The position numbers were made by a program, and so were the translations under genes. From assembly GCA_048593225.1 (NCBI GenBank), contig CM109174.1, positions 125,619,754-125,683,753 on the forward strand: a stretch of DNA of 64,000 bases, in the 5' to 3' direction. The notes under the pieces are model-generated. The model was given only the letters and a program-made list of their open reading frames with translations. It searched no databases and was not told the origin of the DNA. Below, in pieces: positions 1 through 48,914 of the stretch; positions within the stretch are counted from its first letter, which is position 1, and each line of letters opens with the position of its first letter. The stretch is from Sarcophilus harrisii. Its lineage: Eukaryota.

Positions 1-10290
<10,290 letters not shown>

Positions 10291-12089
10291 GTCGGCCCCG
10301 TGGGGGACGGGGATTGGGGCCCAGCCTAGGGTTTAGAAATAGTCTTGGAAATAGGTATTTCTATTGCTAAGGGGATATGTAGGATGGGGGTAAGAAGCTG
10401 GGTGGAGAGGGTGGGTGGGGAAATCCTTAGAACTGGTACAAGACCCCAGGTTTCCATCTCCTCCCCCATTCCTTTGTTGAGGGCAAGGCACTGCTGAGGA
10501 CCAGCAGGGGCAGAGTGGAAACTACATTTAAACACCAAAAAAGAAGTTGTCATGGCAACGGAAGAAGGGGGTGAGGAAAGATGGTCCTAGAGTTCATAAA
10601 ACTGCTGGGAATGTTCCTAAAATCCTAGAGTCTTAAAAATCACTACCCCAACCCACCTCTTTGCACCCTGACTTCCTAAGATCTCTTGGCCCTCTAAAGA
10701 TCTAGCAATTCTATTTTCCAATCCTCAGTCTCAAATTCTAAGTCTCCTTTTCCCTCCAATCTTGGGCTCTTCCCTTCTTTCCCAAAAGCTGCCCAGCTAT
10801 CCTACTGCTTCTGCTCTCTGTACCACTCCCTCTACCTCCCCCCAACCCCCATCTCTTCTACCCTGAAGGAGAACAGGAAGTGGCCAGGCCGGACACTGTG
10901 GAAATCCGGCCATTGTCAAACCCATATTCACTGGGGATTAGGGGTGGGAGAGAAGAGAAAGGGTTCTAGAAACAAGCAAGTAATGGCAAAATTACAGAAA
11001 TAAACCCCTCTGTCTTGTCTGGCTTTCAAGGTTCTCCATAATCTGAACCTGCATCTCTTACCCAGTGCATCTTTATCTCCCACTATTTCTCAAGAAGCAC
11101 TTTTCACTCCAGTCAAGCCAGTTTCTTCCCTGTCCCCACTCTGGACCCAGCTCCAGTTCCATCTCTTTAATAAAGGCCTTTCCTGGACACCCCCAACCAT
11201 CAATCACCTATCTTTTTTAAGGTCTTGGAACATGTATAATCTATCTCACATAATCTGAAACGTAATTATACTCTCCTATTGTTCTCTCTTGTTTCATGTC
11301 AGTTCCCTACTTCCCACAAGCAGATTGTAAACTCCTTGGGGCACGAAGCTATCCTATCTTCACTGAAAATACAGATTTTGTTCAAAGACTTTCTGCCTGA
11401 TCTATCTTCATCTGTAGGTCGCATAAATTTCAGCCCATCCATTTCTCTTGGTGTTCACACTAGGGACACTGTCCACCTATCATCCCACAAGTAGAGGGGC
11501 TCAACTTGCAATCCGGAGTCTGAGGGTTTCTCAGGACGTAGAGGCATGAAACAAAAACCTAGAGAAAAAATACCCTCTCCTTGTCCCTGCAAGCTCCTCT
11601 CTCCTAGACTGAGAGGGATGTCACCAAAACTATATGGGCCATCAGAAGTGAAAATTAAATTTCTCCCCACCTCAAACTCCCAAGTCTCCCTGCACGCAGC
11701 GACCCACAGCCCGAGGGCTCCAACAAAGCCAAGACTAGGCCTGGCAACTAGCCAAGTGAGAATTAGATTCCTCCCAGGCATCTCAGAGTCCAGTTCCTAG
11801 TAGGGTGCCTGGCACACAGAACTACTCCCTAATTGGCTGGTGCAAGGCAAGGTCCTTGAAGGCAAGAACTGCCTTGGTTTTCTATCTATAGAGTGCCGGG
11901 CGCATAGCCGGCAGGACCCTAATAAGCTGGACTGAGCTGCTAAGGCATCCAGGCTAAAGCCCTATAGCCGCGGAGGCCAAATGTAGGAGAAAAAGAAGGG
12001 CAAGGCAGCTGGGGTCTCCAAACTGTCCATCAAGACGCCGACAACCTCTCTATCAACTGAGGCGAGGGGGACGGAATGGGAAGGCCCGT

Positions 12090-14962: not shown

Positions 14963-15100
14963 TTAGATATGGGCCCTCTGCCAAGACGTGTCCCAACGCG
15001 GATGGGTGCAGACTGCGGCGAAGCAGCACAGAAAGCCACAGAAGAAGAGAAGAAAGCAGCTGAAGTAGAGAAGTCGGGAACCACACAAAACGCGTTCCTC
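14963..15100 (-). CDS. TMEM219: TMEM219 coding exon 4 (C-terminal TM helix plus stop).
   Basis: Acceptor ccctcag; stop is the reverse complement of 14963-14965. Confidence 0.82.
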   Translation of the reverse strand, partial: EERVLCGSRLLYFSCFLLFFCGFLCCFAAVCTHPRWDTSWQRAHI

Positions 15101-16954
15101 CTGAGGGTCGGTAGAACAGAGGGAAAAAGATGAGATGATTTCTCCTAGACAGTTATGAATCAGGAGTTTAACAGTGGGGGGAGGGGAGAAGATAATGGGA
15201 GTGCTAAGGAAGAGGGTAGGTAGCTGGGACAAGGGAAGTAGGTCCTAAATCTCAGGAACAGACTAAGAAGAAATCATTCAGGGAATACAAACAAGCAAGA
15301 TTCACATATGATAGGGATCACAAAATGATAAAAGGAGCAAAAAGGTCTCATAATCTGGGGCTCTTACCATAGTAAGTAGCTGGGTGAGAATAAGGCCCTC
15401 ATGGCTCCAGACCTCATAACAATCTTCTGGCTTAGAACTCTCAACAACATATGGATTCACAATATCTCCCTCCCCTTCTTCTAAGCAGGATGTGGGTGGT
15501 TGGCTAGAGGGCAGGATTCTGGGAGCTGCACTGAGAACCAGGCAAGTCCCAGAGGTTTTCTCTACTGGCACCAGGGCTGTGATCAATACCAGCTCCTCTG
15601 CAGAAGAGCCTGGGGAAGGAAAAGAGATGGGAGAAAATGGGAACTTGGGAGAACACATTTTAGGGAGTTGGCAGAGTATTATTCTCTATACATGCTGATG
15701 CAGTTTTTCTACATTATTCACATTCACCTAAATATATCCAATTCAGTTAAAAAACACAGTACTTATTTAAAACTGGAAGGAACCTATAAGACCATACAAC
15801 TCAATCCCTATTAACACTGTTCCTTTTCTTTTCTTCTTGGAATCATAATCATAGAATGTCAGAATTAGAAAAAACCTTACACATCATCTACCTCTCATTT
15901 ACATTAGTAGAAATGGAGGCAAAGAGAAATGAAGATTTTAGACTTGAAGAAATAAGGCTCAGAGAGGTTGTGATTGACTCAATATCATAGTGGTCTAGTG
16001 GCAGAGCTGGGATGATTCTCACCCAACAAGTCTTCTCTTCCAACCTTATTAATAAAGTTCCATCAAAATATAACTTGGGAAAATATTTTTATATTCACTG
16101 AAGTATCCAGAACATAGTAGCTTCTCAACCAATATCATGGTCAGTGAGGTATAATGGGAAAAAATGAGCAGTTGGATTGCATGGTGACTAAGGACTTTTT
16201 GAGCTTTAACATTCTATGATTATATGAAAAAAAGGAAAGGAATACAGTGCTACTGGGAAGAGGAGGTTTCTCTATTTCCTCAGCTATGAATGAAGATAAT
16301 ATCATTTGTCTGCCCTGAGGCTTCCTTCACAGGATTTCTAATGACAGGCAAGATAATGTATATAAAGATACCCTGAAAGCTATATTCAAATGTTAGGGAT
16401 TGTTACTTCACATTCTCGGGAGAGACAGGAAAATGTTTCTAAGAAACCATGGGAAAGGAAGACTTTCAGGTCATGCCTAACCCCTCTTATCATTTTCTTC
16501 TCTCACCACTTAGACCCATTTGGTGACCATGGACAGTGGCCTGTAGTTGTTGAGTCCGGTTCTTCTTGATATCATCTCCTAAATTTAAACTAGTCAGCAG
16601 TTTTACAGTATGAGTCTCAGGTCCCGGTGGTTTCCCTGCAGCTGTCCTGTTCCAAGGGCAGAGAGTCAGCTGACCCAGAGATCTCATAAAGGAGACCCAG
16701 TCCTATGTGCAAAAAGGTGGTAAAGGGTGGTAAGATGAAAGTGACAGTTAAAACAGATCTACAGAAATAATGAGAGGGAGTAATCTCACCTGAGGGATAT
16801 CAGGATTTCGAAGCCCATCACCATGATTAAGGATAAAACCACCAAGGCCTAGACCTGAAGCCCCAAGCAGCAACAATGCAAGTGCAGCACAAACCAAAGG
16901 TGGGTGGTGTGCCAGGCAGAGCTGCAGGTTCTCTCCTGCTTGCCAGCTGCCCAT
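14963..16954 (-). CDS. TMEM219: TMEM219 gene (coding region, 4 exons, 246 aa).
   Basis: The translated exons match TMEM219, including MGSWQAGENLQLCLAHHPPLVCAALALLLLGASGLGLG...RNPDIPQ | DWVSFMRSLGQLTLCPWNRT... | ...SSAEELVLITALVPVEKTSGTCLVLSAAPRILPSSQPP...EVWSHEGLILTQLLTM | EERVLCGSRLLYFSCFLLFFCGFLCCFAAVCTHPRWDTSWQRAHI*. All junctions are GT/AG and the total of 741 nt is in frame. Confidence 0.9.
15368..15609 (-). CDS. TMEM219: TMEM219 coding exon 3.
   Basis: Acceptor ttccccag, donor gtaaga; 242 nt. Confidence 0.82.
16507..16702 (-). CDS. TMEM219: TMEM219 coding exon 2.
   Basis: Acceptor catag, donor gtgagag; 196 nt, ends in phase 1. Confidence 0.82.
16790..16954 (-). CDS. TMEM219: TMEM219 coding exon 1 (the ATG at 16954-16952 is the 23rd codon of the track ORF; a TM helix follows).
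   Basis: The homologous start is MGSW...; donor gtgaga at 16789-16784. A C10 homopolymer lies 8 nt upstream of the ATG. Confidence 0.82.
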
Positions 16955-20612: not shown

Positions 20613-21424
20613 TTTTTTAAGAGAATTCTTGGGACTTCTGGCCAAGATGGCGGAGAGGACACACACATCTACTTAATCTCCGTCTTTGCTCTCAGAATTT
20701 ATCTCATGACAGGGCCTCAGAATTAGTGTTTGACTGCCAAAACAAAACCAAAACACAAATAATTACCAACAGAAGACATCCTTGAAATTCACCAGAAAAG
20801 GTCTGTTTTTGCTCCAGGGTGGGGATGGTTAGATTGGGCACAGACTGAAGGCAGGCATCAAGAGCATGGCAGACAGTGAGAGTACAAAGCTGACTGAGGC
20901 GGGTGGGGTATGATCGCAGCCATTTCTTCAGGGAAATCTTTTACCACAGTGGGACTACTTTGCCCTGGCAGCAAACCAGAGGAATTGTAAACACAGGAGG
21001 TAAAGACTATAACCCTGAAAAGCTAGAGTCTTTGGGGACCTGCTACACCCACCCAGAGTGTCTCAGCATGCTCTCAGATTCTCAGAGTGTAGAAGCAGCG
21101 CAGCCTATTGCTGTCCTGCTCGTGCCTCACTGCTGCCCCTGCAGTCTTCTGAGGAAGCTCGGTAATACCATCCAGCCCCATCCCTCCAAAAAAAAAAAAA
21201 AATGTGTTTTGCTAGTTTGTTTTCTTTGATTCTTCATTGACAAAATGAGCAAAAAATTAAAATGAACTCTAACTATTGATAGCTTCTTTATGGATAGAGA
21301 GCAGACTTTAAAACCTGAGGAGACTAAAAACAGACTGTCTCCAGATATCAAAAGGGAATATGATCTGGTCCTCAATACACAGGACTCAATACACAGGATT
21401 TTGTATACACAAATCATACAGCTA

Positions 21425-21560
21425 GCACAGGATAGTGAGAAGGGCCATTTTCCAAGCATATGCCCATAGAGTATTGTCCAATTGGTAGTTAGCCTTAAGT
21501 GCTTGGCTGTCCTGACCTCAGTGCATTGACTCAAGAGTTTCAAGCCCATTATATCTCCCG
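21425..21560. repeat. ERV terminal direct repeat, left copy (the 3' LTR-like segment relative to the minus-strand provirus).
   Basis: gcacaggatagtgagaagggccattttccaagcatatgcccatagagtattgtccaattggtagttagccttaagtgcttggctgtcctgacctcagtgcattgactcaagagtttcaagcccatta matches 27857-27984 with a few substitutions. Confidence 0.7.
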
Positions 21561-21589
21561 CTTTCTTTTGTTTTAGAACACAGGTGGTC

Positions 21590-21760
21590 ATGCCATCCCT
21601 GACCTCTCAGGGAGGTGAGAACCCCAAAAAGGAGGCAATCATGCCCTTTCTGACTTCTCAAGAAAGGAGGTGAAAACACCGAAAAGGAGGTGATCACGCC
21701 CCCCCCCCCAACATCTCAGGAAGGGAGATGAAAAGCGCCAAAGGGAAGTGGAGATTGCTA
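21590..21760. repeat. Three tandem copies of a ~48 bp unit (ctcaggga/aggaggtgaraac.ccaaaaaggaggyratca.gccc).
   Basis: Direct comparison of 21594-21640, 21645-21700 and 21708-21760. Confidence 0.7.
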
Positions 21761-22064
21761 GCGGGTTTCTGGGCTGAAGGATCTTATTAGAAACAGGTAT
21801 GCACAAACCCATCAGCAAGTGAGGTATTACACAAGCACATAGCAATAATGCACAGGCTATTAGTGGTGACTCTCCCCACATGAATTTTACATGAATTGTA
21901 AATGCAAGTAGTGGTATAACAAACAATATAAATCCATATGGTGTTGTAAAAGATTTCCAGAAGTCCTAGAAGGAGGGTATGTCAACAACAGTCACACATA
22001 TGCCTTCTTCAGCATCCAAGAGATAGTCCAAAACCAATTTATTGTCCATTGCTTCACTTGTCAT

Positions 22065-22445
22065 GGAATCCAATGATCCCCGCAAGTTTTTGAAGTCCTA
22101 CAACAGTCTTTTTATGTGTTAGGGAATCCAATGATTACAGCAGATTTTGAAGTCCTGCAACAGTCTTATCCTGTCTCAGAGAATCCAATGATTCCTGAGG
22201 GTTTTAAGGTCCTACAACATTCTTATCATGTCTCAGAGAATCCAATGATTCCTGAGGGTTTTTTGGTCCTACAACATTCTTATCATGTCTCAGAGAATTC
22301 ATTGATTCCTGAGGGTTTTGAAGTGCTATAACAAACTTATCGGGTCTCAGAGAATCCAATGATTCTTGAGGGTTTTGAGGTCTTACAACAATCTTATCAC
22401 GTCTCAGAGAATCCAATGATTCCTGAGGGTTTTCAAGTCCAACAA
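22065..22445. repeat. Mini-satellite with about 6.5 copies of a 57-60 bp unit (gaatccaatgattcctgagggttttnaggtcctacaacantcttatcatgtctcagag).
   Basis: Direct. It creates repetitive spurious ORFs on both strands (22116..22331 +, 22204..22473 -). Confidence 0.9.
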
Positions 22446-25400
22446 TTTTTGATGTCCATGAGTCAAACGCCATAATTGCCAGGCTCTTTCAGTGGTGGAC
22501 ACAGTCAGAAACAGAACCATCCAATGTTTCTTGGGTCTTCTCCTTTGTTTCAAGGGTCTGCTCTGTCTCTTTCTGATGGACAAGGTGAATATGACTCATT
22601 GGCACCCATCCAATTCCTTCTCCATCTGTGGAGATACAAGCAAACCCTCTCCCCCAAGCAGTTAACCTATCTGGTCCCTTCCATTCACTACTTTCCGGAT
22701 CTCTCCACATCACCTGGAGATTATCTAAAAATAGTGGAGCTGCTCGCACTGGACACTGCCCTTCCAGTGGGTTATAAAACCTGTCTGCCGGAGCCAGTGC
22801 ATCTTTGTCAAAAATCAAGAAGTTAATAGTATAAAGAGCTAGATTTAGAAGTTATCTAGGGTTACCTGTGGCTCCCCCTTTCTTTTGTTTTTGGAGGAGT
22901 GTCTTAATGTCTCTGTTTCTCCTCTTTACTATTGCCTGTCCTTGAGGATTAAAGAGTATGCCAGTGGTGTCTAAAATCTTATACTGTGCACAAAAGTATG
23001 CAAAATGTTTAGAAGTATTTGCTGGGCCATTGTCTCTTTTTATTGCTTGTGGCACAGCCATAATCGCAAATGCTTGCATAAGGAATTCAGTGATCACTCG
23101 GGCTGTCTCTTTTGTTGCTGGTATTGCAAAAGTGAATCCTGAAAAAGTGTCTACACCACAACATGGATAAAAGACAAATGACCAAAAAATTTATAATGGG
23201 TCACATCCATTTACCAGATTTTACTGGGTCTCAAATCACGAGGGTTCTTCCCTGGAGACAGTGTAGGAGCATGGAAAGGAAAGCAAGCTGTATAGGCTTT
23301 TACTATGCTCCTAGCTTCCTCTCTTGTTATTCCAAATTGTAAATGTAAAGCTCGAGCAGCCTGATGATATTTAGAATGAGATTCTTGGGCTTCCTGAAAT
23401 AAAAGAGTGTTGGCCAACATGGTTAAAAGGCTATCTGCCTTTGAATTACCATCAAAAATAGGACCTGGAAGTCCACTATGAGAGTAGACATGCAAGATAT
23501 AAATCTTACCTGGATGCTTTCTCACTTGCTCTTGAAGTTCCTTAAAGAGCTGATATATATTAGAAGCTACAAATTTTATTTGGCCTGTGGCAATTCTTTG
23601 TACCACACTTACTGAATAGGCTGAATCAGATATTATATTTATATCTCCTGGATAATAAGTAAGAGCTAGAATGATTGTATACAATTCATTCTGCTGAGTG
23701 GACTGAAAAGGAGTCTCTCTTTATAGTTAAGTCAGAAGAGTATACAGGACAAATATGTTTGGATGCACCTGTAGAGGTAGTTGGTCCTTTAAGAGGAACT
23801 TTAGAAACCTTTTCTTCAAGAATCCATCGCCAGTTACGTAATAGTTTGGTTATCTTTAACAGAGATCCGTGTGTAAAATTTGGAGCTATGGCTAATAAAA
23901 TTTGCCACTTTAGGGTGGTTTCACAGCATACATTAATTTGTGCATTAGTATAAAAGGTGTATATCTTATCAGGTTTTATCCCAGATAATTGTACTGCTTG
24001 CTTAATGGCCTTAATAAAATTCTAGCCACAAGCACTGGGTAAGGAGTAAGGCTTTGTTCTGGTTGTGCTGGGAGGTTGACCCACTCTATCACACTGTCTC
24101 CTTGATGAAGGACTGCTGTGGATGCTCTTGTGTAGCAAAAACTGATATTTCCAAGGGTTTTTGAGTGAATCTTTCAACCACATTGGATAAAACCAGTTCA
24201 ACTTCTCTCAAAGCCTCTTGAGCTTTTTTTGTAAGCTGGTGTGGTGAGTTTAAAGCACTGTCTCTCCTTAAAATGTCATATAATGGTTGTAACTGATAGG
24301 TAGTCAAGCCCAACACTGGATGCATCCATTGGATATCTCCTATCAATTTCTGAAAGTCATTTAAGGTGTTTAGCTTCTCTGTTCTTAAGGAAAGTTTTTG
24401 TACTGTAAGCACCTTAGGATATACTTCATATCCTAAATATTGAAAAGAAGCATGTCTTTGAATTTTTTCTGGAGCTATGTGTAATTTGTAGTTCCTTAGT
24501 GTTTCTATGGTCTTTTATAGACATGCTTCTAACATTTGTTCCTCAGGTGCACATCCCAATATATCATCCATGTAATGTTATAACATAATTTTTGGAAATG
24601 CTTTTCTTACTGGAGTAACAGCAGCAGCAACATACATTTGACACATAGTAGGGCTGTTTTTCATTCCCTGTGGCAAAACTGTCCATTCATATCTTTTATA
24701 AGGTTCAGCTAAGTTAACGCTGGGCACTGAAAAGGCAAATCTTTTCATATCCTTCTTATCTACAGGGATAGAATAGAAATAATCCTTAATGTCTATAACC
24801 CAAAGAGGCCATTCTCTAAGCAATTGAGTAGGAGATGGAAGCCCAGGCTGAAGAGTTCCCATAGTTTCCATGTATTCATTTACCTTTCTTAAAATCAGTC
24901 AATATCCTCCATTTTCCAGATTTCTTTCTTACAACAAATACTGGGGAATTCCAAGGACTTAGAGAAGGTTGTAAGTGTCCTTGTCAAGTTGCTCCTGTTC
25001 TATATCTAATAAGGCCTGAATTTTATCACTAACAAAAGGCCACTGTTCTATCCACACTGGTGTATCAGTTTTCTATTGGATAGGAACAGGTGAAAGTGTT
25101 AGCAGGCCTTCAACAGCAGCCCTGCGTAAAAAAACGAAGTATTCATTTTTAATCCTAATTGTAAAATGTCTCTTCCCCACAGATTGATGGGGATTTTTTC
25201 AACTATAAAAGGAGTTAAAATTCCTGTTTCACCTTCAAATATCCATCTCAAAGGGGTAGCACTAACTTCTGCTATTGATCCCCCTACACCAGACACATAG
25301 GTGTCTGCCTTAATCTTTGGCCAGTTGGCACTGGGCCAGTTGGCACCTCTAATGACTGTACGATCTGCACCAGTGTCTACCAATTCTTCTAATAATATGC

Positions 25401-27856
25401 CATTTATATAGATAGTGAGCATAGGTCGGTCAGCTGTCACAGCTGCTGTCCAGTATATTCCTGGATTTTGTTGCTTGGTGTCAGAATCTGGGAAACTATC
25501 ACCAGATTGCTTATTAGGAGTCTGTATCAGTAAACCTGATGCTACTACTTCTCCTGGTTCACAAGTCATACACTGTCTACCTGTATTAGTGACTGGGATA
25601 TTTATTTACACATTCCCCAGTTTCCCACATCACTGTATTAATGGACACTGTTTTGTAAGTACACTCAGGAGGTGAAATGGTCAAGCCTAATGTGCCTGGA
25701 GGCAAGGGATCCATAGACTGGAGCGTAACAGATTTTACCTCTCCAGGGGGTATCTCAGTTGTCCCAGCTGCATACAACTCTGTTCTCCCCAATTGTAATC
25801 CCTTTCTCCCATCAGGTTGCTTCCTGGCTGATTGGTCATGTTTGGGTACTGAATTTCTAGGTACTCTCTGGGTGTAGCATCTGCGACCATCATGCCCCAA
25901 GTGTTTTTTGCCTGGGGCCCTGGAGCTGGGGCCCTCATCCCATTTCCCCGAATCAGTCTACATTCTGAGGCCCAATGGAAGCCTCTGTTGCATTTTGGAC
26001 ATGGGGTATTGGGTCTTGTTCTCCCACCCTGTTTTCTCACTCTGTCTCTATGCCAACATTGAGCTTTCAGATGCCCTACTTTACCACACTGAAAGCATTG
26101 ATGAGTGTCTCTGGAAATCCCTTGCCAAAAGGGACCCTGTCTTCCCATGTTGGGATCTTGGGAAGTCTGGATCATAACCTGGCTATAAAAGGTATTTGTG
26201 CCCACTGTGGCAAGGAGCATCCTTGCATAGTCCTAGTATAATTCTTCTACAAACCTCATTAGCATTTTCTTTAGCAAGTTGCCTTATCATAATGTCTGTT
26301 ACTGCATTTTCACCATTAGTTCATATGACAACTGACTGCAAATGTCCCACAAAATCAGCAAAGGGTTCATTTGGCTCTTGTGCTGTTTTTGTGAAGGCCT
26401 CACTCTTGTCGTTTTTATTATGGAGAGAAGCCCACGCTTTGATAGCAGCAGCAGCAATTTGCTCATATGTTGCTATAGAGTAATTAATATGTACTGTGAT
26501 GTCTGCATAAGAGCCTACACCTGTTAGTTGGTCACAGGTGATTGGAGGATTAACTCCACTTTGACTATTTTGTTTGGCTTGTATCCTACAGAGCTCACTA
26601 TATTCAGAAAGCCACAACAAGTTTTGTCCAGGTTCTAAACATGTCCTTGCTATAGATTTCTAGTCCCTAGGGGTTAAGACTTCATAAGCTAAATTCTGTA
26701 ATAACATCTTAACATAAGCTGATGTAGTCCCATAAAGAGTGCAAGCCTTTTTCAGATCTTTGAGGATTTCTATATCAAAAGGAAGATATCTTCCACTTTC
26801 TTGACCTGAAGAGTTAAACTGTTGAATCACAGGATACATACCTATTTTCAGATCACCTAAATTCTGGCCTTCTTTCCTGGCTTTAACTACTGCCTTTTGC
26901 AATCTAGTCATAGCAGGGGGTGATTTTGGGGGGAGGAGGTGCTGGTGGTGTCACAACCCCTCCCACTACTCCTGCTCCCTCCATCCAGAAAGGTAAAGTT
27001 GATGGGGGCGTGTCAAGAAACAGTTCCAGTTTAGGCGGGGTTGAATCACCACGCCCTTCACCACACCCTTCATCCTCACTTAACTCCCCATGTCCTCCAG
27101 TGATATCGTTTTTTAATCCCTCCTTTGTCCTCCTCTTTTTCCTCACACTTCCTCATCTGGCTGTTCTTAGAATTTTTCTTTTTTCTATAACTTGCAGGTT
27201 TCTTTAAGGTCAATTATGTTGTATGTACAGGCCAATTATGTTGTATGTATAGAATGTTCCCTTGGAAATTGAACAAGAACCTTTATTATTGTAGAACATA
27301 ATTGTTCTCCTACCAGCTTCCAATTATCTAGCCCTATCTCTTCTTCCTTTAAGAACCAAGGGGACATGTGTTCTAATGTATCCAAAAGTCTAGTGATCTG
27401 CAACCAAGTTACAATTAAGCCTTGTCCCTTGATCAACTTAAGCATGCTTTCTATAGCGACCCCTTGGGGCATGGGGCTGGGGCTGGGGGTTGGGGAGAAT
27501 CTTTTCCCAATATCCGCCCTATTTCAGCCCTTAACAAAATAATTTGTCTATTAAAATACTCACCCTATTTCCTGGTCATCAGAGACTTCCTCAGTGAAAT
27601 TAGGGTCCTTGGTCCACATGTTGGGCACCAAATGTGATGACTGTGTTAGTGCCTTGGATGCTTTAGAATTAGCCTGAGTCAGGATAAGCAAAAGTTCTTA
27701 GTCTTTATTCTTGGTCTTTAGAGGTAGGATTGAATTGGAAGGAAGCAGAATCTCCACGACCACCTTCTCCCTTGTCTACTGCCAAAGTGACTGGCTAGTC
27801 TTACTCCACCCCCCAGTCTTTCCTACAATTCTCCTTATACACCAGTCATTGAGTCA

Positions 27857-27984
27857 GCACAGGATAGTGGGAAGAGCCATTTTACAAGCTTATGCTAATA
27901 GAGTATTGTCCAATCGGTACTTAGCCTTAAGTGCTTGGCTGTCCTGACCTCAGTACATCAACTCAAGAGTTTCAAACCCATTAC
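27857..27984. repeat. ERV terminal direct repeat, right copy (5' LTR-like segment).
   Basis: Near-identical to 21425-21560. Flanking sequence is unrelated on both sides, so the full LTR extent is uncertain. Confidence 0.7.
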
Positions 27985-28074
27985 AGGGAGGGACTAAAAA
28001 GGGAGGGCTGTGAGAAGCAAGTGGTGCTCACAAGTTTAATACTGGGAAGGAGGGTATGGGGGAAGGAAAGGAGA

Positions 28075-28560
28075 AAAGCATAATCTGGGGATATTATGAT
28101 GGCAGGAAATACAGAATTAGTAATTTTAACCATAAATGTGAATGGGGTAACCTCCCCCATAAAGAGGAAGAGGTTAGCAGACTAGATTAAAAGCCAGAAT
28201 CCTACAATATGTTGTTTACAGGAAACACACTTGAAGCAGGGAGATGCATAGTGTAAAGATAAAAGGTTGGAGCAGAATCTACTATGCTTCAGGTGAAGTA
28301 AGAAAAGCAGGGATAGCCATCCTGATCTCAGATCAAGCAAATGCAAAAATTGATCTAATTAAAAGAGATAAGGAAGGGCATTATGTCTTGCTAAAGGGTA
28401 GCATAGATAATGAAGCAAGATCAATATTAAACATATATGTACCAAATGGTGTAGCATCTAAATTTTCAAAAGAGAAATTAAGAGAGCTGCAAGAAGAGAT
28501 AGACAGCAAAACTATAATATGGGAGATCTCAACTTTGCCCTCTTAGAATTAGATAAATCA
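28075..28560 (+). mobile_element. L1 ORF2 N-terminal (endonuclease domain) fragment.
   Basis: ORF 28244..28546 reads ...KIKGWSRIYYASGEVRKAGIAILISDQANAKIDLIKRDKEGHYVLLKGSIDNEARSILNIYVPNG..., which is L1 EN-like. Confidence 0.8.
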
Positions 28561-29379
28561 AACCACAAAATAAATAAGAAAGAAATCAGAGAGAATTCTT
28601 GGAAATTTTACATATAAAAGAGGGGTGTTGAGCTCTTGGCCTTTCTCACTATGGCCCTTCCCATTGAATTTAGTGTTGGGGGAACCTAACTCCAGAGAGA
28701 CATCAGACTTTTTGTATCAATCTCCTGAAGCATCTGGAAAATCTCTTAGATTTGACCCATGTCTGGGATGTCCCCTAAAAGTGTTTAACAGAATAATTTT
28801 TTAAAGTAGTAGATATCAGATATGGAACATTCATTTATTTCTTCTACCATGAAGTGATAGCTAAAATGTAGAAAACATAAGCACACATTGATAAATATTT
28901 ACTAGGACATGAAACAGTAACAAAGGACTCAAGTCCATAAATTGATACATGAACACATACTACAAACATAGAAACCATTAAAATGCAGACATACCTTCCT
29001 ATTCATTTCTAGTATTCTTTTCTGTGAATATATAGATTCCTATGAGACTAATGGGACTGCTGAATAGACTCCATTTTTTCTTCACCTTTGCACAGTCCAA
29101 GCCACAACTCAAGATTTCTAATTTTTTGTCAATTTGATCTGCAAAACTGTTACCTTCTATAATAGTTATCTCCTCTGAGAAGGGGAACAGAATTATAGGA
29201 AGTAATATTAGGCATCTAACACCTAGGCCTCTCAATGATTTCAGACCTATCTAGCTTACAAGATAGCCACCAAAACTAGGAATCTCAGGACCCATGTACC
29301 TAGAGTCAAGGAAAGAAATACAGAATAGAAACAAGGATTTGAAATCCAATCTAAAACACACCTAGAATACTCACCTGTT

Positions 29380-44399: not shown

Positions 44400-45430
44400 A
44401 TTTTAATAGTTTTTTACTGAAAAGCGCGCCTTGGGGCACATGAGTAATTTGCTCCGTTTTGTTTTTAGCAGGGCATCGCTGCATTGAGTTCTTAGAGAAG
44501 GCAAAGACAAGAGTACCAGACCCTCCCCCACGGCCCCCGCGTGCCCCGACGCAGCCTGCGCCGCTCAGGGCTCTGGGAACGCCCGGGGACACAGGGGGCG
44601 CTCGAGAACCAAACCGCTCCGGCCGCCAGTGCGCATGTCTCCCTCTCTTCTTCCTCCTCTCCCAGGGAAGTCGCAGTGCGTTTGCGTGGCTTGGGTCAGC
44701 ACTAACTTCCGGGCAGCGTTGTAGAGATGGGGCCGCGAAGGGGTCCGGGAGCCGAGTAGAGCCGAGTCGGGGCGGGGGGGGATAGCGGGGTGGGCGGGAG
44801 GGAGGGGTGGGGGCGGGGTAGGGGCGGGGGGGAGGCGGGGTGGGGGATTGGAAGGGCTCGCGGAGAGGGGCGGGGTCTGAGGACCAGGGTCAGAGGTTGC
44901 CGCTAGGACTGGAGGCTCGGTGGGGGGGGGGTGATTTTGCCGCTGTCTCCGGCGGGAGGGGCCAGCATGTCAGCCGAGGCCACGGGCGCGGCGTCCCCGG
45001 CCGCCCCCTCTCCTGGGGGTCCCGAACCCCCGGGCCCGGCGCTGCCGCCCACGCCTCCCACCCCCGGGGCCGCGGGCGGGGGCGCGGCCTATGACCTCAA
45101 GCCGCTGAGTCCGAGTAGCAAGTACGTGAAGCTGAACGTGGGGGGCTCGCTGCACTACACCACGCTGCAGACCCTGACCAAGCAGGACACCATGCTCAAA
45201 GCTATGTTCAGTGGCCGCATGGAGGTGCTCACAGACTCGGAAGGTAGCCGGGCTTGGGGCCGGGGCCGGGCAGGACAGCTGCGAGTCCGAAAGCTCCGCG
45301 GGCTCCCGGGGACGGAGCCCGGTCTACACCCCGCCGCGCGGGGTAGCCGTCCCGAGAAATGGGTTTGGGGTTCCGGGCGAGTCACTTAGACCCTCGGCGC
45401 CTCAGTTTCCTCATTTGAACCAAGTTAGAC
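44400..45430 (+). promoter_or_regulatory. KCTD13: CpG island, promoter and 5' UTR region of KCTD13, with multiple GGGCGG-like GC boxes at 44760-44840.
   Basis: GC/CpG density immediately 5' of the KCTD13 ATG. It overlaps exon 1. Confidence 0.55.
44967..45243 (+). CDS. KCTD13: KCTD13 exon 1 (coding part). The track ORF start at 44931 is a GTG codon.
   Basis: ATG at 44967-44969 (gccagcATGtc); donor gtagcc at 45244. Confidence 0.85.
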
Positions 45431-48400
45431 TTGGGCAGCTCAGAATAACCTTTCTCTAAAAGCGTCTCGTCTCTTAAATATCGGTTGGATAGATGAATAG
45501 AGATTAGAGGCTAGCCTCAGCACTGTCAGAAAAAAAAGATGGAAAAGTACTCAGAGTTTGCAGGTAACCTGTATCAGAAGGTGAGGCCTTCCTTCCGAGA
45601 GAGCGACATCCCTGTCGTCGTTAAAAAAAAGTGCCCAAGTGTTTCTCCAAGTATTGGTGCTATAGCTTTACGAAACTGCCCTCTAGGTAAAGGGCTGCCT
45701 TTTGGGGCCAGAGGGAAATTGTTCCTCCTGGAGAGACAGATGGCTAAAGGCCGAGTGTTTCCCCTCCGGCAGGAGTGCAGAATTAAAGGCATGCTTGGTC
45801 CTCAACTCAGGATGGAGTAGGGACCCTTGCAATGCCTGCTTTTCTCAAGAGGCAGGGGTGAACCCTTCACATCCAGAAGGAAAGAAAAAGCAGCTGCTAG
45901 TAGATGTATTTGTTGGGGGTTGGAGTTGGAGTTGGAGGAGGGGAAAATGAGTATTGAATAAAGAATAAAAGCAGCTGTTCCATATGTTGCCGAGGGACAG
46001 GATTATGCTTTTGTTCCTATAGAAGCCAAGGACTTGGGAAGTGGGGGTGGTAGGCTTTGCTGTGCACCTGATCCCACCAGAGGAAAAAGGGGAGGATACA
46101 CGTTTGAAGGAGCATATTAAAAGCTGAGAAGTTTGGGTGATTTTGTAGTCACAAAGTCTTGTTGAAATAGGAGGATAAGTCAGTGGTTACCTCTGAGAAC
46201 AGGACAGAGAAAGGATATCCTGAATATTTTAACTTTTTAGGTTAGATACTAACCTAGATCAAAAAGCAAGGTTTATGGAGTTGGGTACAGTATGATCATT
46301 ATCAACAAAAACTTGTCTTTTCTCCAAGTATTAATGGTTTAAAGACAATGATTGCCCTCTAGAGAAAGGGCGGTTCTTTTTTTGGGGGGGGGGGATTTTT
46401 ATTTGTTAGATATGGTAATAATTAAAAAAACATAGAGAAAATTGAACATTTCTCCCTTCCTCTTTGTGTTTCCTCACCCCCCCCCCCCCCCATTCAGGTT
46501 GGGTGCTGATTGATAGGAGTGGACGTCATTTTGGGACAATCCTGAACTACCTTCGGGATGGGTCAGTTCCTCTTCCAGAGGGCCCTCGGGAGCTGGGTGA
46601 GCTGTTGGGTGAGGCACGTTACTACTTGGTTCAGGGACTAGCTGAGGACTGCCAGTTAGCTCTACAGGTGAGACCACATGTTTTTCTACCTTTTTCTCTG
46701 TATGTGTTGACTTCTTGAGGGGCACAGAAAAAACACTTTTGTCTCCAGCCTATTTCTTCCCACACTATTCTATCCCTCATTTGCTTTTTATCGCACATTA
46801 TCTGAAGTAGTAACCAAGATGGAATGGGTACAATTAATGTGAGAGAATAAACTGCAGGGAGTGACATGTGAGTAAGGGAGCCTGGGGCCTTGTGGGCTTT
46901 TTTTTTTTTTTTTTTTTAGGAACACTGTGTTCTCATTCAGGCTCCATGCCCACATTAGCTAGCTTTTTAATCTCTCTGGATCTGTTTCTTGTGAAATGAA
47001 TAAATGGAACTGGTTCTAATATTTTGTCTAGTTCCAGCAAGAATAATTCACACTTATAAAATATTTTAAGGGCTATAAAGCATCACTACTACCCCTCCCC
47101 CCAAATCCTGTGAAGTGTAAAAATTGAGGAAACTGAGGCTCAGAAAAGTAAAATGATTTTGCTCCTGATCATACATCTAATGTCAGAACCAGAACATAAA
47201 CTCTGGTCTACTGACTCCCAGTATCTTGTCTTTTCTAGTATGCCAATTGCTTTGGGTGTCTTAGTGCTGTTTTAAAATACTTAAAATGGCACTAAGTTTG
47301 AGACATTTTCTATTTTTATAGTATGTTCAAAAATTTATGTAACAAAATAATCCCATAGAATAGTTAGGCTCAGTGTTTTCTTCCTTTCACAGATTAGGAA
47401 ATATACTAAGAGGTAGGTAAAGTCCTTTGCACTAGTTCATTCAAAGCAAGTGGCAGAACCAGAATTATATCCCAGTGTCCTTTCTTTTGTATTATTTTGT
47501 TTTTCCTGCTCTGATTTAACAAGACCCTCTTCTGGGCTATTGTGTTTCCTGATAGTTGTGGAGCTCTGAAAAGTGTTGTAGCCATGAGTAATAGTGAAAA
47601 GAGAAGTAGAGATGGCTGAATTTCTTACTTGATTCTTAAGCCCCAGTTCTTCTCACCATTCTTCCCACTTCTTCTTCCCTGTCAAGCAATAACTAATCTC
47701 CTTTTTCTTTCTTAGCAAAAGAGTGAGAGTCTTTCCCCGCTCTGCCTTATCCCCATGGTGACATCTCCACGGGAGGAACAGCAGCTTCTGGCTAGCACCT
47801 CTAAGGTGAGACACCAGCAGATTGGGAAGGATTGGCTTTTTTGAACTCAGCCTGATCCTTTTCTTCTGTCCTTTCTTTCTCCCCCTCAGCCAGTGGTGAA
47901 GTTGTTGCACAATCGAAGTAACAACAAATATTCCTACACCAGGTAAGGGGGAATCCTGGATTGGCCCAGCCCTTCAATTCTCCCCCCCCGTTCTCTTCCT
48001 TAACAGGTTATAGACTTATTCCCCAAGTTCCTATCTCCTTTCTAAATACATTCTCAATAACCATAATTCTAACTTGGTCAGTTGGTTTTGGTGCTAGAAT
48101 TTGACTGCCTTTTGCTACCCACCTCTCCAATCCCCTAGCACGTCGGATGACAACCTACTAAAGAACATTGAGCTGTTCGACAAGCTGGCATTGCGCTTCC
48201 ACGGGCGGTTGCTCTTTCTCAAGGATGTGCTAGGTGATGAGATCTGCTGCTGGTCTTTTTATGGACAGGGCCGAAAGATTGCCGAAGTCTGCTGTACCTC
48301 CATTGTCTATGCCACTGAGAAGAAGCAGACCAAGGTCAGAGATGAGCCTGGGATTTGAAGATGGGAGAGGTCTACTTTAGCATTCTTAGCTGTTAAAGAA

Positions 48401-48914
48401 GCAATGGAATGGGTATTTGTATGCTTATGGGAGGAAGAAACTGGGTGTATTGAAAATAAGGTAGTTGTAGAGGCTGTCACTTCTCTTTCTCTCTCTTCTC
48501 CTTTTCCCTCTTTCCTCCCACATCTTCCTCCCTTTCCTCTCTCCATTCTTCTCTTTCCTTCCTTTTCTCTCTTAATTTCTCTTTCTTCCTACTCTTCCCT
48601 TCCCCACTTTTGATGAGACCAAAATGGCTCAAATATGGGACAAGTGATTGCCAACCTTGACATCTACCTTTTTACAGGTAGAATTCCCAGAGGCAAGGAT
48701 CTTTGAAGAAACATTGAATATTTTGATCTATGAGACACCCCGGGGGCCTGACCCTGCTCTCCTAGAGGCCACTGGGGGTGCTGCTGGAGGAGGTGGGGCT
48801 GGGCGGGGAGAAGATGAAGATGGACGAGAGCATCGAGTCCGAAGGATCCACGTCAGACGACATATCACTCATGATGAACGACCCCATGGCCAGCAGGCTG
48901 TCTTCAAGGATTGA
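44967..48914 (+). CDS. KCTD13: KCTD13 gene (BACURD1; BTB/POZ domain-containing adaptor for CUL3), 6 coding exons, 340 aa.
   Basis: The exons translate to [18 protein letters not shown]...[52 protein letters not shown] | [56 protein letters not shown] | [30 protein letters not shown] | [17 protein letters not shown] | [66 protein letters not shown] | [34 protein letters not shown]...[26 protein letters not shown]. All junctions are GT/AG and the total of 1023 nt is in frame. Confidence 0.93.
46498..46667 (+). CDS. KCTD13: KCTD13 exon 2 (BTB domain).
   Basis: The acceptor cattcag is preceded by a C12 homopolymer; donor gtgaga. Confidence 0.88.
47085..47245 (+). mobile_element. MIR-like SINE in KCTD13 intron 2.
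   Basis: aaaattgaggaaactgaggctcagaaaagtaaaatgattttgctcctgatcatacatctaatgtcagaaccagaacataaactc. Confidence 0.55.
47716..47805 (+). CDS. KCTD13: KCTD13 exon 3.
   Basis: Acceptor ctttcttag, donor gtgaga; 90 nt. Confidence 0.88.
47890..47942 (+). CDS. KCTD13: KCTD13 exon 4 (53 nt).
   Basis: Acceptor ccccctcag, donor gtaagg. Confidence 0.85.
48139..48334 (+). CDS. KCTD13: KCTD13 exon 5.
   Basis: Acceptor tcccctag, donor gtcaga (weak but in frame); 196 nt. Confidence 0.82.
48678..48914 (+). CDS. KCTD13: KCTD13 exon 6 (coding part, stop TGA at 48912-48914). The 3' UTR continues to about 49565.
   Basis: Acceptor tttacag; ORF 48648..48914. Confidence 0.88.
   Translation, partial: VEFPEARIFEETLNILIYETPRGPDPALLEATGGAAGGGGAGRGEDEDGREHRVRRIHVRRHITHDERPHGQQAVFKD

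Follow-up and report, generated by a model that had tools for sequence, protein, structure and literature searches.

A stretch of 64,000 nucleotides of the Tasmanian devil (Sarcophilus harrisii) genome (assembly GCA_048593225.1, contig CM109174.1, positions 125,619,754 to 125,683,753 of the forward strand), referred to below as the window, carries an endogenous retrovirus (ERV) on its minus strand between the genes TMEM219 and KCTD13. A preliminary description, made from the sequence, had presented this element as an env-less gag-pro-pol provirus with very short terminal repeats and had placed it between the same two genes, both of which were found flanking it. Judged by comparison with published marsupial retroviruses, the element belongs to marsupial endogenous betaretrovirus 3 (MEBrv 3) and is a degraded copy of that family, which is already known and was published in 2024 (Harding et al. 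2024, Mol Biol Evol 41:msae160; PMC11334065).

Results

Identity of the element

Harding et al. defined eight clades of marsupial ERVs, among which MEBrv 3, a clade defined by pol, has a length of about 7.3 kb, contains gag-pro-pol and no env open reading frame (ORF), and carries a gammaretrovirus-like immunosuppressive domain (ISD) beyond pol (PMC11334065). According to the same source, an average of 67.5% of the ERVs of dasyurids are MEBrv 3; intact copies exist in quoll, dunnart and antechinus, and the copies in the Tasmanian devil are "degraded and nonfunctional". As reference we used dvERV6989 of Dasyurus viverrinus (7305 bp), the MEBrv 3 representative in the supplement of that paper, and the transcribed sequence was validated by its correct length, its two identical long terminal repeats (LTRs) of 469 nt and translations that agreed with the annotation. 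Comparison of the window with this reference by blastn and MAFFT gave a single blastn match, linking reference 1274-6732 with window 26840-21582, and in the global alignment the element was colinear with the reference, with no internal indel exceeding 52 nt. The earlier view of a single class II provirus without env, as opposed to separate nested pol pieces, is borne out; given this colinearity, the element is not the heavily deleted provirus that had been proposed at the same time.

The gag-pro-pol order first noticed on the minus strand was recovered as a series of Pfam domains between 27523 and 22492, namely Gag_p10, Gag_p24, Gag_p24_C, two CCHC knuckles, RVP, RVT_1, RVT_thumb, RNase_H, Integrase_Zn, rve and IN_DBD_C. 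A Gag_p10-type matrix, two CCHC knuckles and a pro gene in a frame of its own between gag and pol are all betaretrovirus-like (class II) features. The best matches of the capsid in the PDB were "capsid protein p27" chains and ERV-K capsids. The RVP domain of pro was detected with an E-value of 6e-22, and the protease gave as its best PDB matches 1nso and 3sqf ("Protease 13 kDa", "Gag-Pro-Pol polyprotein"; E 1.4e-17), which are structures of the protease of Mason-Pfizer monkey virus. The integrase in turn was closest to 7usf and 3jca (E 9e-52), the latter being the MMTV intasome. These matches to solved structures agree with a betaretrovirus-like origin. In a database of 5.8 billion proteins the named homologues of the reverse transcriptase (RT) were ERV-K-like with an identity of at most 49%, and no RT relative above 49% identity was found in the public protein databases searched.

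In the intact reference the coding sequences start at 618, 2237 and 3280, so that pro lies in the -1 frame of gag, and pol in the -1 frame of pro. When these frames were projected onto the window, 13 frameshifting indels and 9 premature stops were counted, and no gene is intact; the YMDD and DTGA motifs are nevertheless retained. Gaps between ORFs had raised the suspicion of a deleted RT N-terminus, which was ruled out, as reference 3059-3279 aligns at 92%. In the interval between matrix and capsid we also observed an exact tandem duplication of 22 bp x 2 (27207-27249).

The N-terminal region of Pro, about 130 residues encoded on the minus strand at about 25430-25900, shows conservation between the devil copy and the MEBrv 3 reference of the quoll. 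No dUTPase was detected in pro by Pfam, either in the devil copy or in the intact reference Pro, and none in the PDB; the region had 0 matches in a HMMER scan of 1.84 billion representative proteins, and no known domain of any kind was recognised in it by these searches. A word-indexed search returned a single match, another MEBrv 3 Pro fragment, and the AlphaFold model was unusable (pLDDT 32). A degenerate dUTPase at 25900-25600, suspected by eye, was dropped, since Pfam, PDB, protein searches and AlphaFold gave it no support. The coordinates of all features are collected in Table 1.

Table 1. Features of the MEBrv 3 element and of the block around it, in window coordinates, with nucleotide identity to the MEBrv 3 reference dvERV6989 (amino acid identity in brackets).
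Feature	Position	Strand	Identity to reference	Remarks
Duplication, left copy	20620..20632	.		13 nt, AGAGAATTCTTGG; flanks the L1 and ERV block
L1, left part	20633..21403	+		putative 5' untranslated region (UTR) starting ..GGCCAAGATGGCGG.., then the first ~53 codons of ORF1
3' LTR, truncated	21404..21553	-		only 150 nt left, U3 as far as the TATA box
Polypurine tract (PPT)	21554..21574	-		AAAACAAAAGAAAGCGGGAGA; abuts the start of the 3' LTR; aligns with reference aaaataaaagaaagcgggaa
55-bp tandem repeat	21588..21701	.		~2 copies; just upstream of the PPT
Gamma-type env transmembrane (TM) remnant	21969..22097	-	89%	ISD motif MDNKLVLDYLLDAEEGIC at ~21996-22049
57-bp minisatellite	22066..22445	.	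84% (minisatellite region)	6.6 copies; follows the pol stop and precedes the env remnant
pol pseudogene	22489..25123	-	90.9% (87%)	RT (YMDD retained), RNase H, integrase; 6 frameshifts, 5 premature stops
pro pseudogene	25126..25900	-	88% (78%)	~130-aa N-terminal region, then DTGA retropepsin; 1 frameshift
gag pseudogene	25789..27519	-	73%	matrix (MA), capsid, nucleocapsid with two CCHC knuckles; 6 frameshifts, 4 premature stops
Leader			71%	
Primer-binding site (PBS), tRNA-Lys1,2	27613..27630	-		TGGTGCCCAACATGTGGA; 2 nt after the 5' LTR, following ...ATCACA TT
5' LTR, complete	27633..27985	-		353 bp, TG...CA; first 150 nt recur at the 3' end
L1, right part	27986..28589	+		spacer, then ORF2 endonuclease residues 1 to ~163, encoded by 28093-28589
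Duplication, right copy	28590..28602	.		13 nt, AGAGAATTCTTGG

Terminal repeats, primer-binding site and polypurine tract

The two ends of the element had been reported to share a repeat of about 130 bp, which was taken as the length of the LTR. One terminal direct repeat is indeed present (21404-21553 and 27836-27985; 150 nt, ungapped, 19 mismatches, 87% identical, blastn E 6e-47), but it does not represent the LTR, since the copy at the 5' end is 353 bp long and only the 3' copy is short. On the element strand the 5' LTR begins TGTAATGGG at 27985 and the 3' LTR begins TATAATGGG at 21553. A TATAAGG motif is located at 27839-27833, exactly where the similarity between the two LTRs ends, and an AATAAA at 27709-27704. 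Neither a further copy of the terminal repeat nor the rest of the 3' LTR was found elsewhere in the 64-kb window.

A PBS, of which none had been evident earlier, was found 203 nt past the end of the shared block. Its sequence, TGGTGCCCAACATGTGGA, is identical at 14 of 18 positions to TGGCGCCCAACGTGGGGC, the PBS of tRNA-Lys1,2, and this was the best fit among the 14 tRNA PBS types tried; two of the four mismatches are C-to-T or G-to-A changes at CpG. A Lys1,2 PBS pattern that tolerates such changes matches only here in the whole window, where chance would give 0.01 matches, and TGGTGCCCAACATGTGGA lines up position by position with the reference PBS, tggcgcccaacggtggga. Because of the position of the PBS, the length of the 5' LTR is set at 353 bp; LTRs of about 350 bp are of ordinary size for a type D betaretrovirus. 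Instead of the unusual short-LTR family considered in the preliminary description, the element has one full-length TG...CA LTR followed by a Lys PBS, and a 3' LTR that stops after 150 nt.

The remainder of the 5' LTR is specifically though weakly similar to the R/U5 of the reference around AATAAA, the score being reached by 3 of 1000 shuffles. In contrast, the sequence beyond 21403, below the truncated 3' LTR, showed no match to the 5' LTR or to the reference LTR (its score was reached by 594 of 1000 shuffles). The reference copy is bounded on both sides by a 6-bp duplication, CTAAAT. In a search for the corresponding target-site duplication, CCTCCC, present at the 5' flank of the devil element, was not encountered again in the 1.4 kb that lie beyond its 3' end. 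The 5' flank does resemble the sequence beyond the 3' LTR over 9 nt, TTTTTAGTC, but this was set aside, as it was not significant in blastn. Likewise, a longer LTR was looked for in the Antechinus fragment described below, which was found to hold just the first ~40-70 nt of it. Just below the truncated 3' LTR lies an exact tandem duplication of 14 bp x 2 (21371-21398).

Tandem repeats and env remnant downstream of pol

The space after the integrase holds the 57-bp minisatellite noted earlier, with the number of copies given in Table 1, and closer to the PPT a second tandem repeat with units of 55 bp. In the quoll reference the homologous array, at 5762-6137, consists of 8.7 units of 43 bp, the 43-bp unit being a derivative of the 57-bp unit. 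In addition, the tail of the published MEBrv 2 record from Antechinus flavipes (9601-11106) is an unannotated, inverted MEBrv 3 fragment. This fragment comprises the end of the integrase, the repeat in 57-bp units, the ISD, the PPT and the start of the LTR, and from the integrase through the repeat and the ISD to the PPT it is 82-86% identical to the window. The 55-bp repeat was detected by TRF in the element, in the reference (6582-6753) and in the Antechinus fragment alike. By this comparison, both the minisatellite and the 55-bp repeat are family-level features, the unit length and copy number of the minisatellite varying between dasyurid genera.

The same space had been described as free of any env-like ORF. 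The stretch after the minisatellite, however, reads ...SLDSMTSEAMDNKLVLDYLLDAEEGICVTV... and encodes a remnant of a TM subunit with an ISD. This remnant had only four PDB matches at E<10, all of them retroviral TM fusion cores and all aligned on LQNRRGLDLL...GG(I/L)C: 4jf3 ("Envelope glycoprotein"), 7s94 (ERV S71 Env), 1mof (Moloney MLV p15) and 1y4m (HERV-FRD Env). Its local alignment with the TM of MEBrv 2, a marsupial type D ERV, scored above all 5000 shuffles (z = 9.3), and the region to which it aligns in the reference, with the identity given in Table 1, is the one annotated as ISD in PMC11334065. A membrane anchor following the ISD (DFWKSF...PLLAF) lies in the right place with respect to the MEBrv 2 TM, but scored no better than shuffles and is kept only as a possibility. 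Since the element is colinear with the env-less reference, the missing env is inherited from the family, and its absence is a trait of MEBrv 3 rather than the outcome of a deletion at the devil locus.

The surrounding L1 fragment, the empty dunnart site and the flanking genes

The orthologous site of the fat-tailed dunnart is colinear with the window on both sides and lacks 20633-28589, a block larger than the ERV. In the devil this block is flanked by the 13-nt duplication of Table 1, situated at a T9/AAGAG site; in the dunnart the sequence occurs once, as AGGGAATTCTTGG, and the block is missing (dunnart locus L001, about 7205-7258). The presence of the insertion in another marsupial, which had been left to be checked, is answered in this way, and an insertion specific to the lineage, as first supposed, is supported.

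To the right of the provirus the block encodes the beginning of an L1 ORF2, recognised as Exo_endo_phos by Pfam (E 6e-11) and as the human L1 ORF2 endonuclease in the PDB (1vyb, residues 2-163, E 4.6e-53); the block ends within ORF2, 14 nt past an AATAAA (28569), and has no poly(A) tail. Truncation of the L1 at its 3' end near an internal AATAAA, with no poly(A), suggests premature polyadenylation or internal priming. On the left an ORF starting MSKKLK opens 611 nt into the block. The truncated 3' LTR abuts codon ~53 of ORF1, and the 5' LTR abuts the end of ORF1 or the spacer. Since the block is absent from the dunnart and its non-ERV parts are L1, the L1 fragment that encloses the provirus is specific to the devil side of the split from the dunnart.

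TMEM219 lies at 14966-16954 on the minus strand and KCTD13 at 45090-48911 on the plus strand, both having been located with probe sequences. The joined TMEM219 exons reproduce the Sarcophilus harrisii protein, save one splice-junction residue missed when the exons were joined; against the Sminthopsis crassicaudata protein there are 9 differing positions, that residue counted in. The flanking TMEM219 exons accordingly identify the window as Tasmanian devil DNA and the host as a dasyurid, as in the MEBrv 3 clade.

Discussion

The overall explanation that we favour, with a probability of about 90%, is that the window contains one old, dead, 3'-truncated MEBrv 3 provirus in the genome of the Tasmanian devil. 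Besides colinear gag-pro-pol genes at 88-91% nucleotide identity in pro and pol, the element shares with the MEBrv 3 representative a Lys-type PBS, a PPT, tandem repeats after pol, a gamma-type ISD stub, the absence of an env ORF and a dasyurid host, in a species for which degraded copies of the family have been reported. It differs from the representative in the LTR, which in the quoll has 469 bp with an internal duplication, in the 57-bp instead of 43-bp unit of the minisatellite, and in having a truncated 3' LTR, no target-site duplication and 22 frame-breaking mutations.

Based on these comparisons, we propose the following history. MEBrv 3 is a class II, betaretrovirus-like lineage whose reverse transcription is primed by tRNA-Lys1,2, and it lost nearly all of a gamma-type env before amplifying in Dasyuridae, keeping a TM stub with the ISD, preceded by the minisatellite. 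As a consequence of the loss of env, it would have spread as an intracellular retrotransposon, in the manner of mouse IAP, a mode of spread that we take from PMC11334065. Following the split between the devil and dunnart lineages, the locus described here would first have received an L1 fragment, at a distance of 4.4 kb upstream of TMEM219, and a provirus, originally with two 353-bp LTRs, would then have integrated into this fragment on the minus strand. Later, a deletion of about 1 kb may have taken most of L1 ORF1 together with the target-site duplication at the 3' side and the last 203 bp of the 3' LTR, and point mutations and small indels would finally have destroyed every reading frame. 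A single deletion reaching from the distal LTR through the body of ORF1 could explain both the short 3' LTR and the missing duplication, CCTCCC being found on the 5' side alone since the 3' end would have been deleted. Regarding its age, the two LTRs differ by 12.7% (95% confidence interval 7.8-19.1%; Kimura two-parameter distance 0.14), and the intergenic difference between devil and dunnart at the same locus is 7.3-9.9%; from this comparison it follows that the insertion is about as old as the devil-dunnart split, in keeping with the moderate age first assigned to it.

Several observations weigh against parts of this account. Only the first ~70 nt of the LTR can be aligned with that of the quoll reference, at 75% identity, and the two differ in length (353 vs 469 bp), the value of 353 bp coming from a single copy of its LTR subfamily; the leader and the 5' part of gag are likewise only ~67-73% identical to the reference. 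We read an LTR that departs from the ~469 nt of the reference as a different LTR subfamily and not as an exclusion from MEBrv 3. The strong divergence of the LTR, leader and 5' gag, and with it the very uneven identity along the element, suggests that this copy belongs to an LTR/MA subfamily distinct from that of the quoll representative, or that it may be a mosaic produced by recombination between MEBrv 3 lineages. The placement in MEBrv 3 was made by pairwise pol identity to the reference. In addition, an LTR-LTR difference in excess of the devil-dunnart value would, at face value, make the insertion slightly older than the split, which is awkward for an integration after it, with P ranging from 0.02 to 0.17 and not significant at the upper value. 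The interpretation of 20633-21403 as an L1 5' UTR and ORF1 start, finally, is drawn from the flanking duplication that it shares with the ORF2 part and from what is known of L1 5' ends, and this segment is probably of L1 origin.

The divergence excess is one of the reasons to consider that the ERV may have arrived as a passenger, already antisense and 3'-truncated within a source L1, and have been copied into this site by the L1 machinery instead of its own integrase. A chimeric transcript of about 8 kb, made up of the 5' UTR, the start of ORF1, the antisense ERV and the start of ORF2, would have terminated early, at a poly(A) site within ORF2, and its insertion would have duplicated the 13-nt target. 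Such an origin would suit a dunnart-absent block that starts with L1-5'-UTR-like sequence and ends 14 nt past AATAAA in ORF2, a duplication at T9/AAGAG, the kind of site that the L1 endonuclease typically uses, an ERV devoid of a target-site duplication of its own, and LTRs that differ by more than the two species do (12.7% vs 7.3-9.9%). On the other hand, the block has no poly(A) tail, the ~8-kb transcript would have had to pass three AATAAA and several ATTAAA motifs of the plus strand inside the antisense ERV, and the excess loses significance when the upper end of the species range is taken (P = 0.17). Because an ordinary nested insertion followed by one deletion accounts for everything, we regard a passenger origin as unlikely.

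Less credit still can be given to the idea that the element represents a genuine short-LTR family, or a recombinant of two elements with only ~150 bp of U3 in common. The two ends do have just 150 bp in common, and the LTR, leader and MA fall far below pol in their uneven identity to the reference, but the PBS lies 203 nt past the shared block, after a CA and in exact register with the LTR-PBS junction of the reference; moreover, the remaining part of the 5' LTR, with its TATA box and AATAAA, is similar to the reference R/U5. No similarity to either LTR was seen in the sequence that follows the 3' block, which lies inside the L1 block, where it is presumably the L1 5' region. Most improbable, and already contradicted, is a heavy deletion specific to the locus, by which an env-carrying virus would have integrated and lost env afterwards in the devil. 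The TM stub being all that is left of env, in a copy that lost sequence by deletion at least once more, from its 3' LTR, could be taken in its favor; yet the arrangement of pol stop, minisatellite, ISD, 55-bp repeat and PPT is shared with the quoll reference and the Antechinus flavipes fragment, with 82-89% identity over the junctions and no large indel, and the loss of env is reported for the whole MEBrv 3 clade (PMC11334065). The devil copy is thus best described as an ordinary env-less MEBrv 3 provirus that was truncated at its 3' end.

Among known systems, mouse IAP is likewise a class II ERV that lost env and multiplied in the genome as a retrotransposon, as MEBrv 3 is said to have done in PMC11334065; it belongs to another lineage, in which MA was adapted for ER targeting, and MEBrv 3 differs from it in keeping a gamma-type TM stub. 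The type D betaretroviruses (Mason-Pfizer monkey virus, TvERV(D) and MEBrv 1/2) combine a betaretroviral gag-pro-pol with a gammaretrovirus-type TM carrying an LQNRRGLDLL-like ISD, have LTRs of about 350 bp, and include the nearest structural matches of the element's protease (1nso, 3sqf). In contrast to them, the element has no SU or fusion peptide, its TM is a stub, and no dUTPase was detectable in pro; the identity of MEBrv 3 Pol to that of type D betaretroviruses is ~44-53% in the table of PMC11334065. With HERV-K (HML)/ERV-K the element shares its class II status, a tRNA-Lys PBS, a Gag_p10-type MA and ERV-K-like named RT homologues, but the RT identity is at most 49% and the env of HERV-K is beta-type.

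The copy is in itself an ordinary one, being one of the decayed copies of MEBrv 3 that number thousands in the devil genome, which had already been screened in PMC11334065. Its description is of corrective value, as "short LTRs" and "no PBS" were artefacts of reading, and the loss of env is a property of the family, not of the locus. Tandem repeats, PBS and dUTPase are not mentioned in PMC11334065, to which the present analysis adds a PBS of tRNA-Lys1,2 type for MEBrv 3, a minisatellite after pol that differs in unit length and copy number among dasyurid genera, and a Pro N-terminal region with no detectable dUTPase. For the Tasmanian devil, the copy provides a dated presence/absence marker, 4.4 kb upstream of TMEM219, that distinguishes the devil and dunnart lineages.

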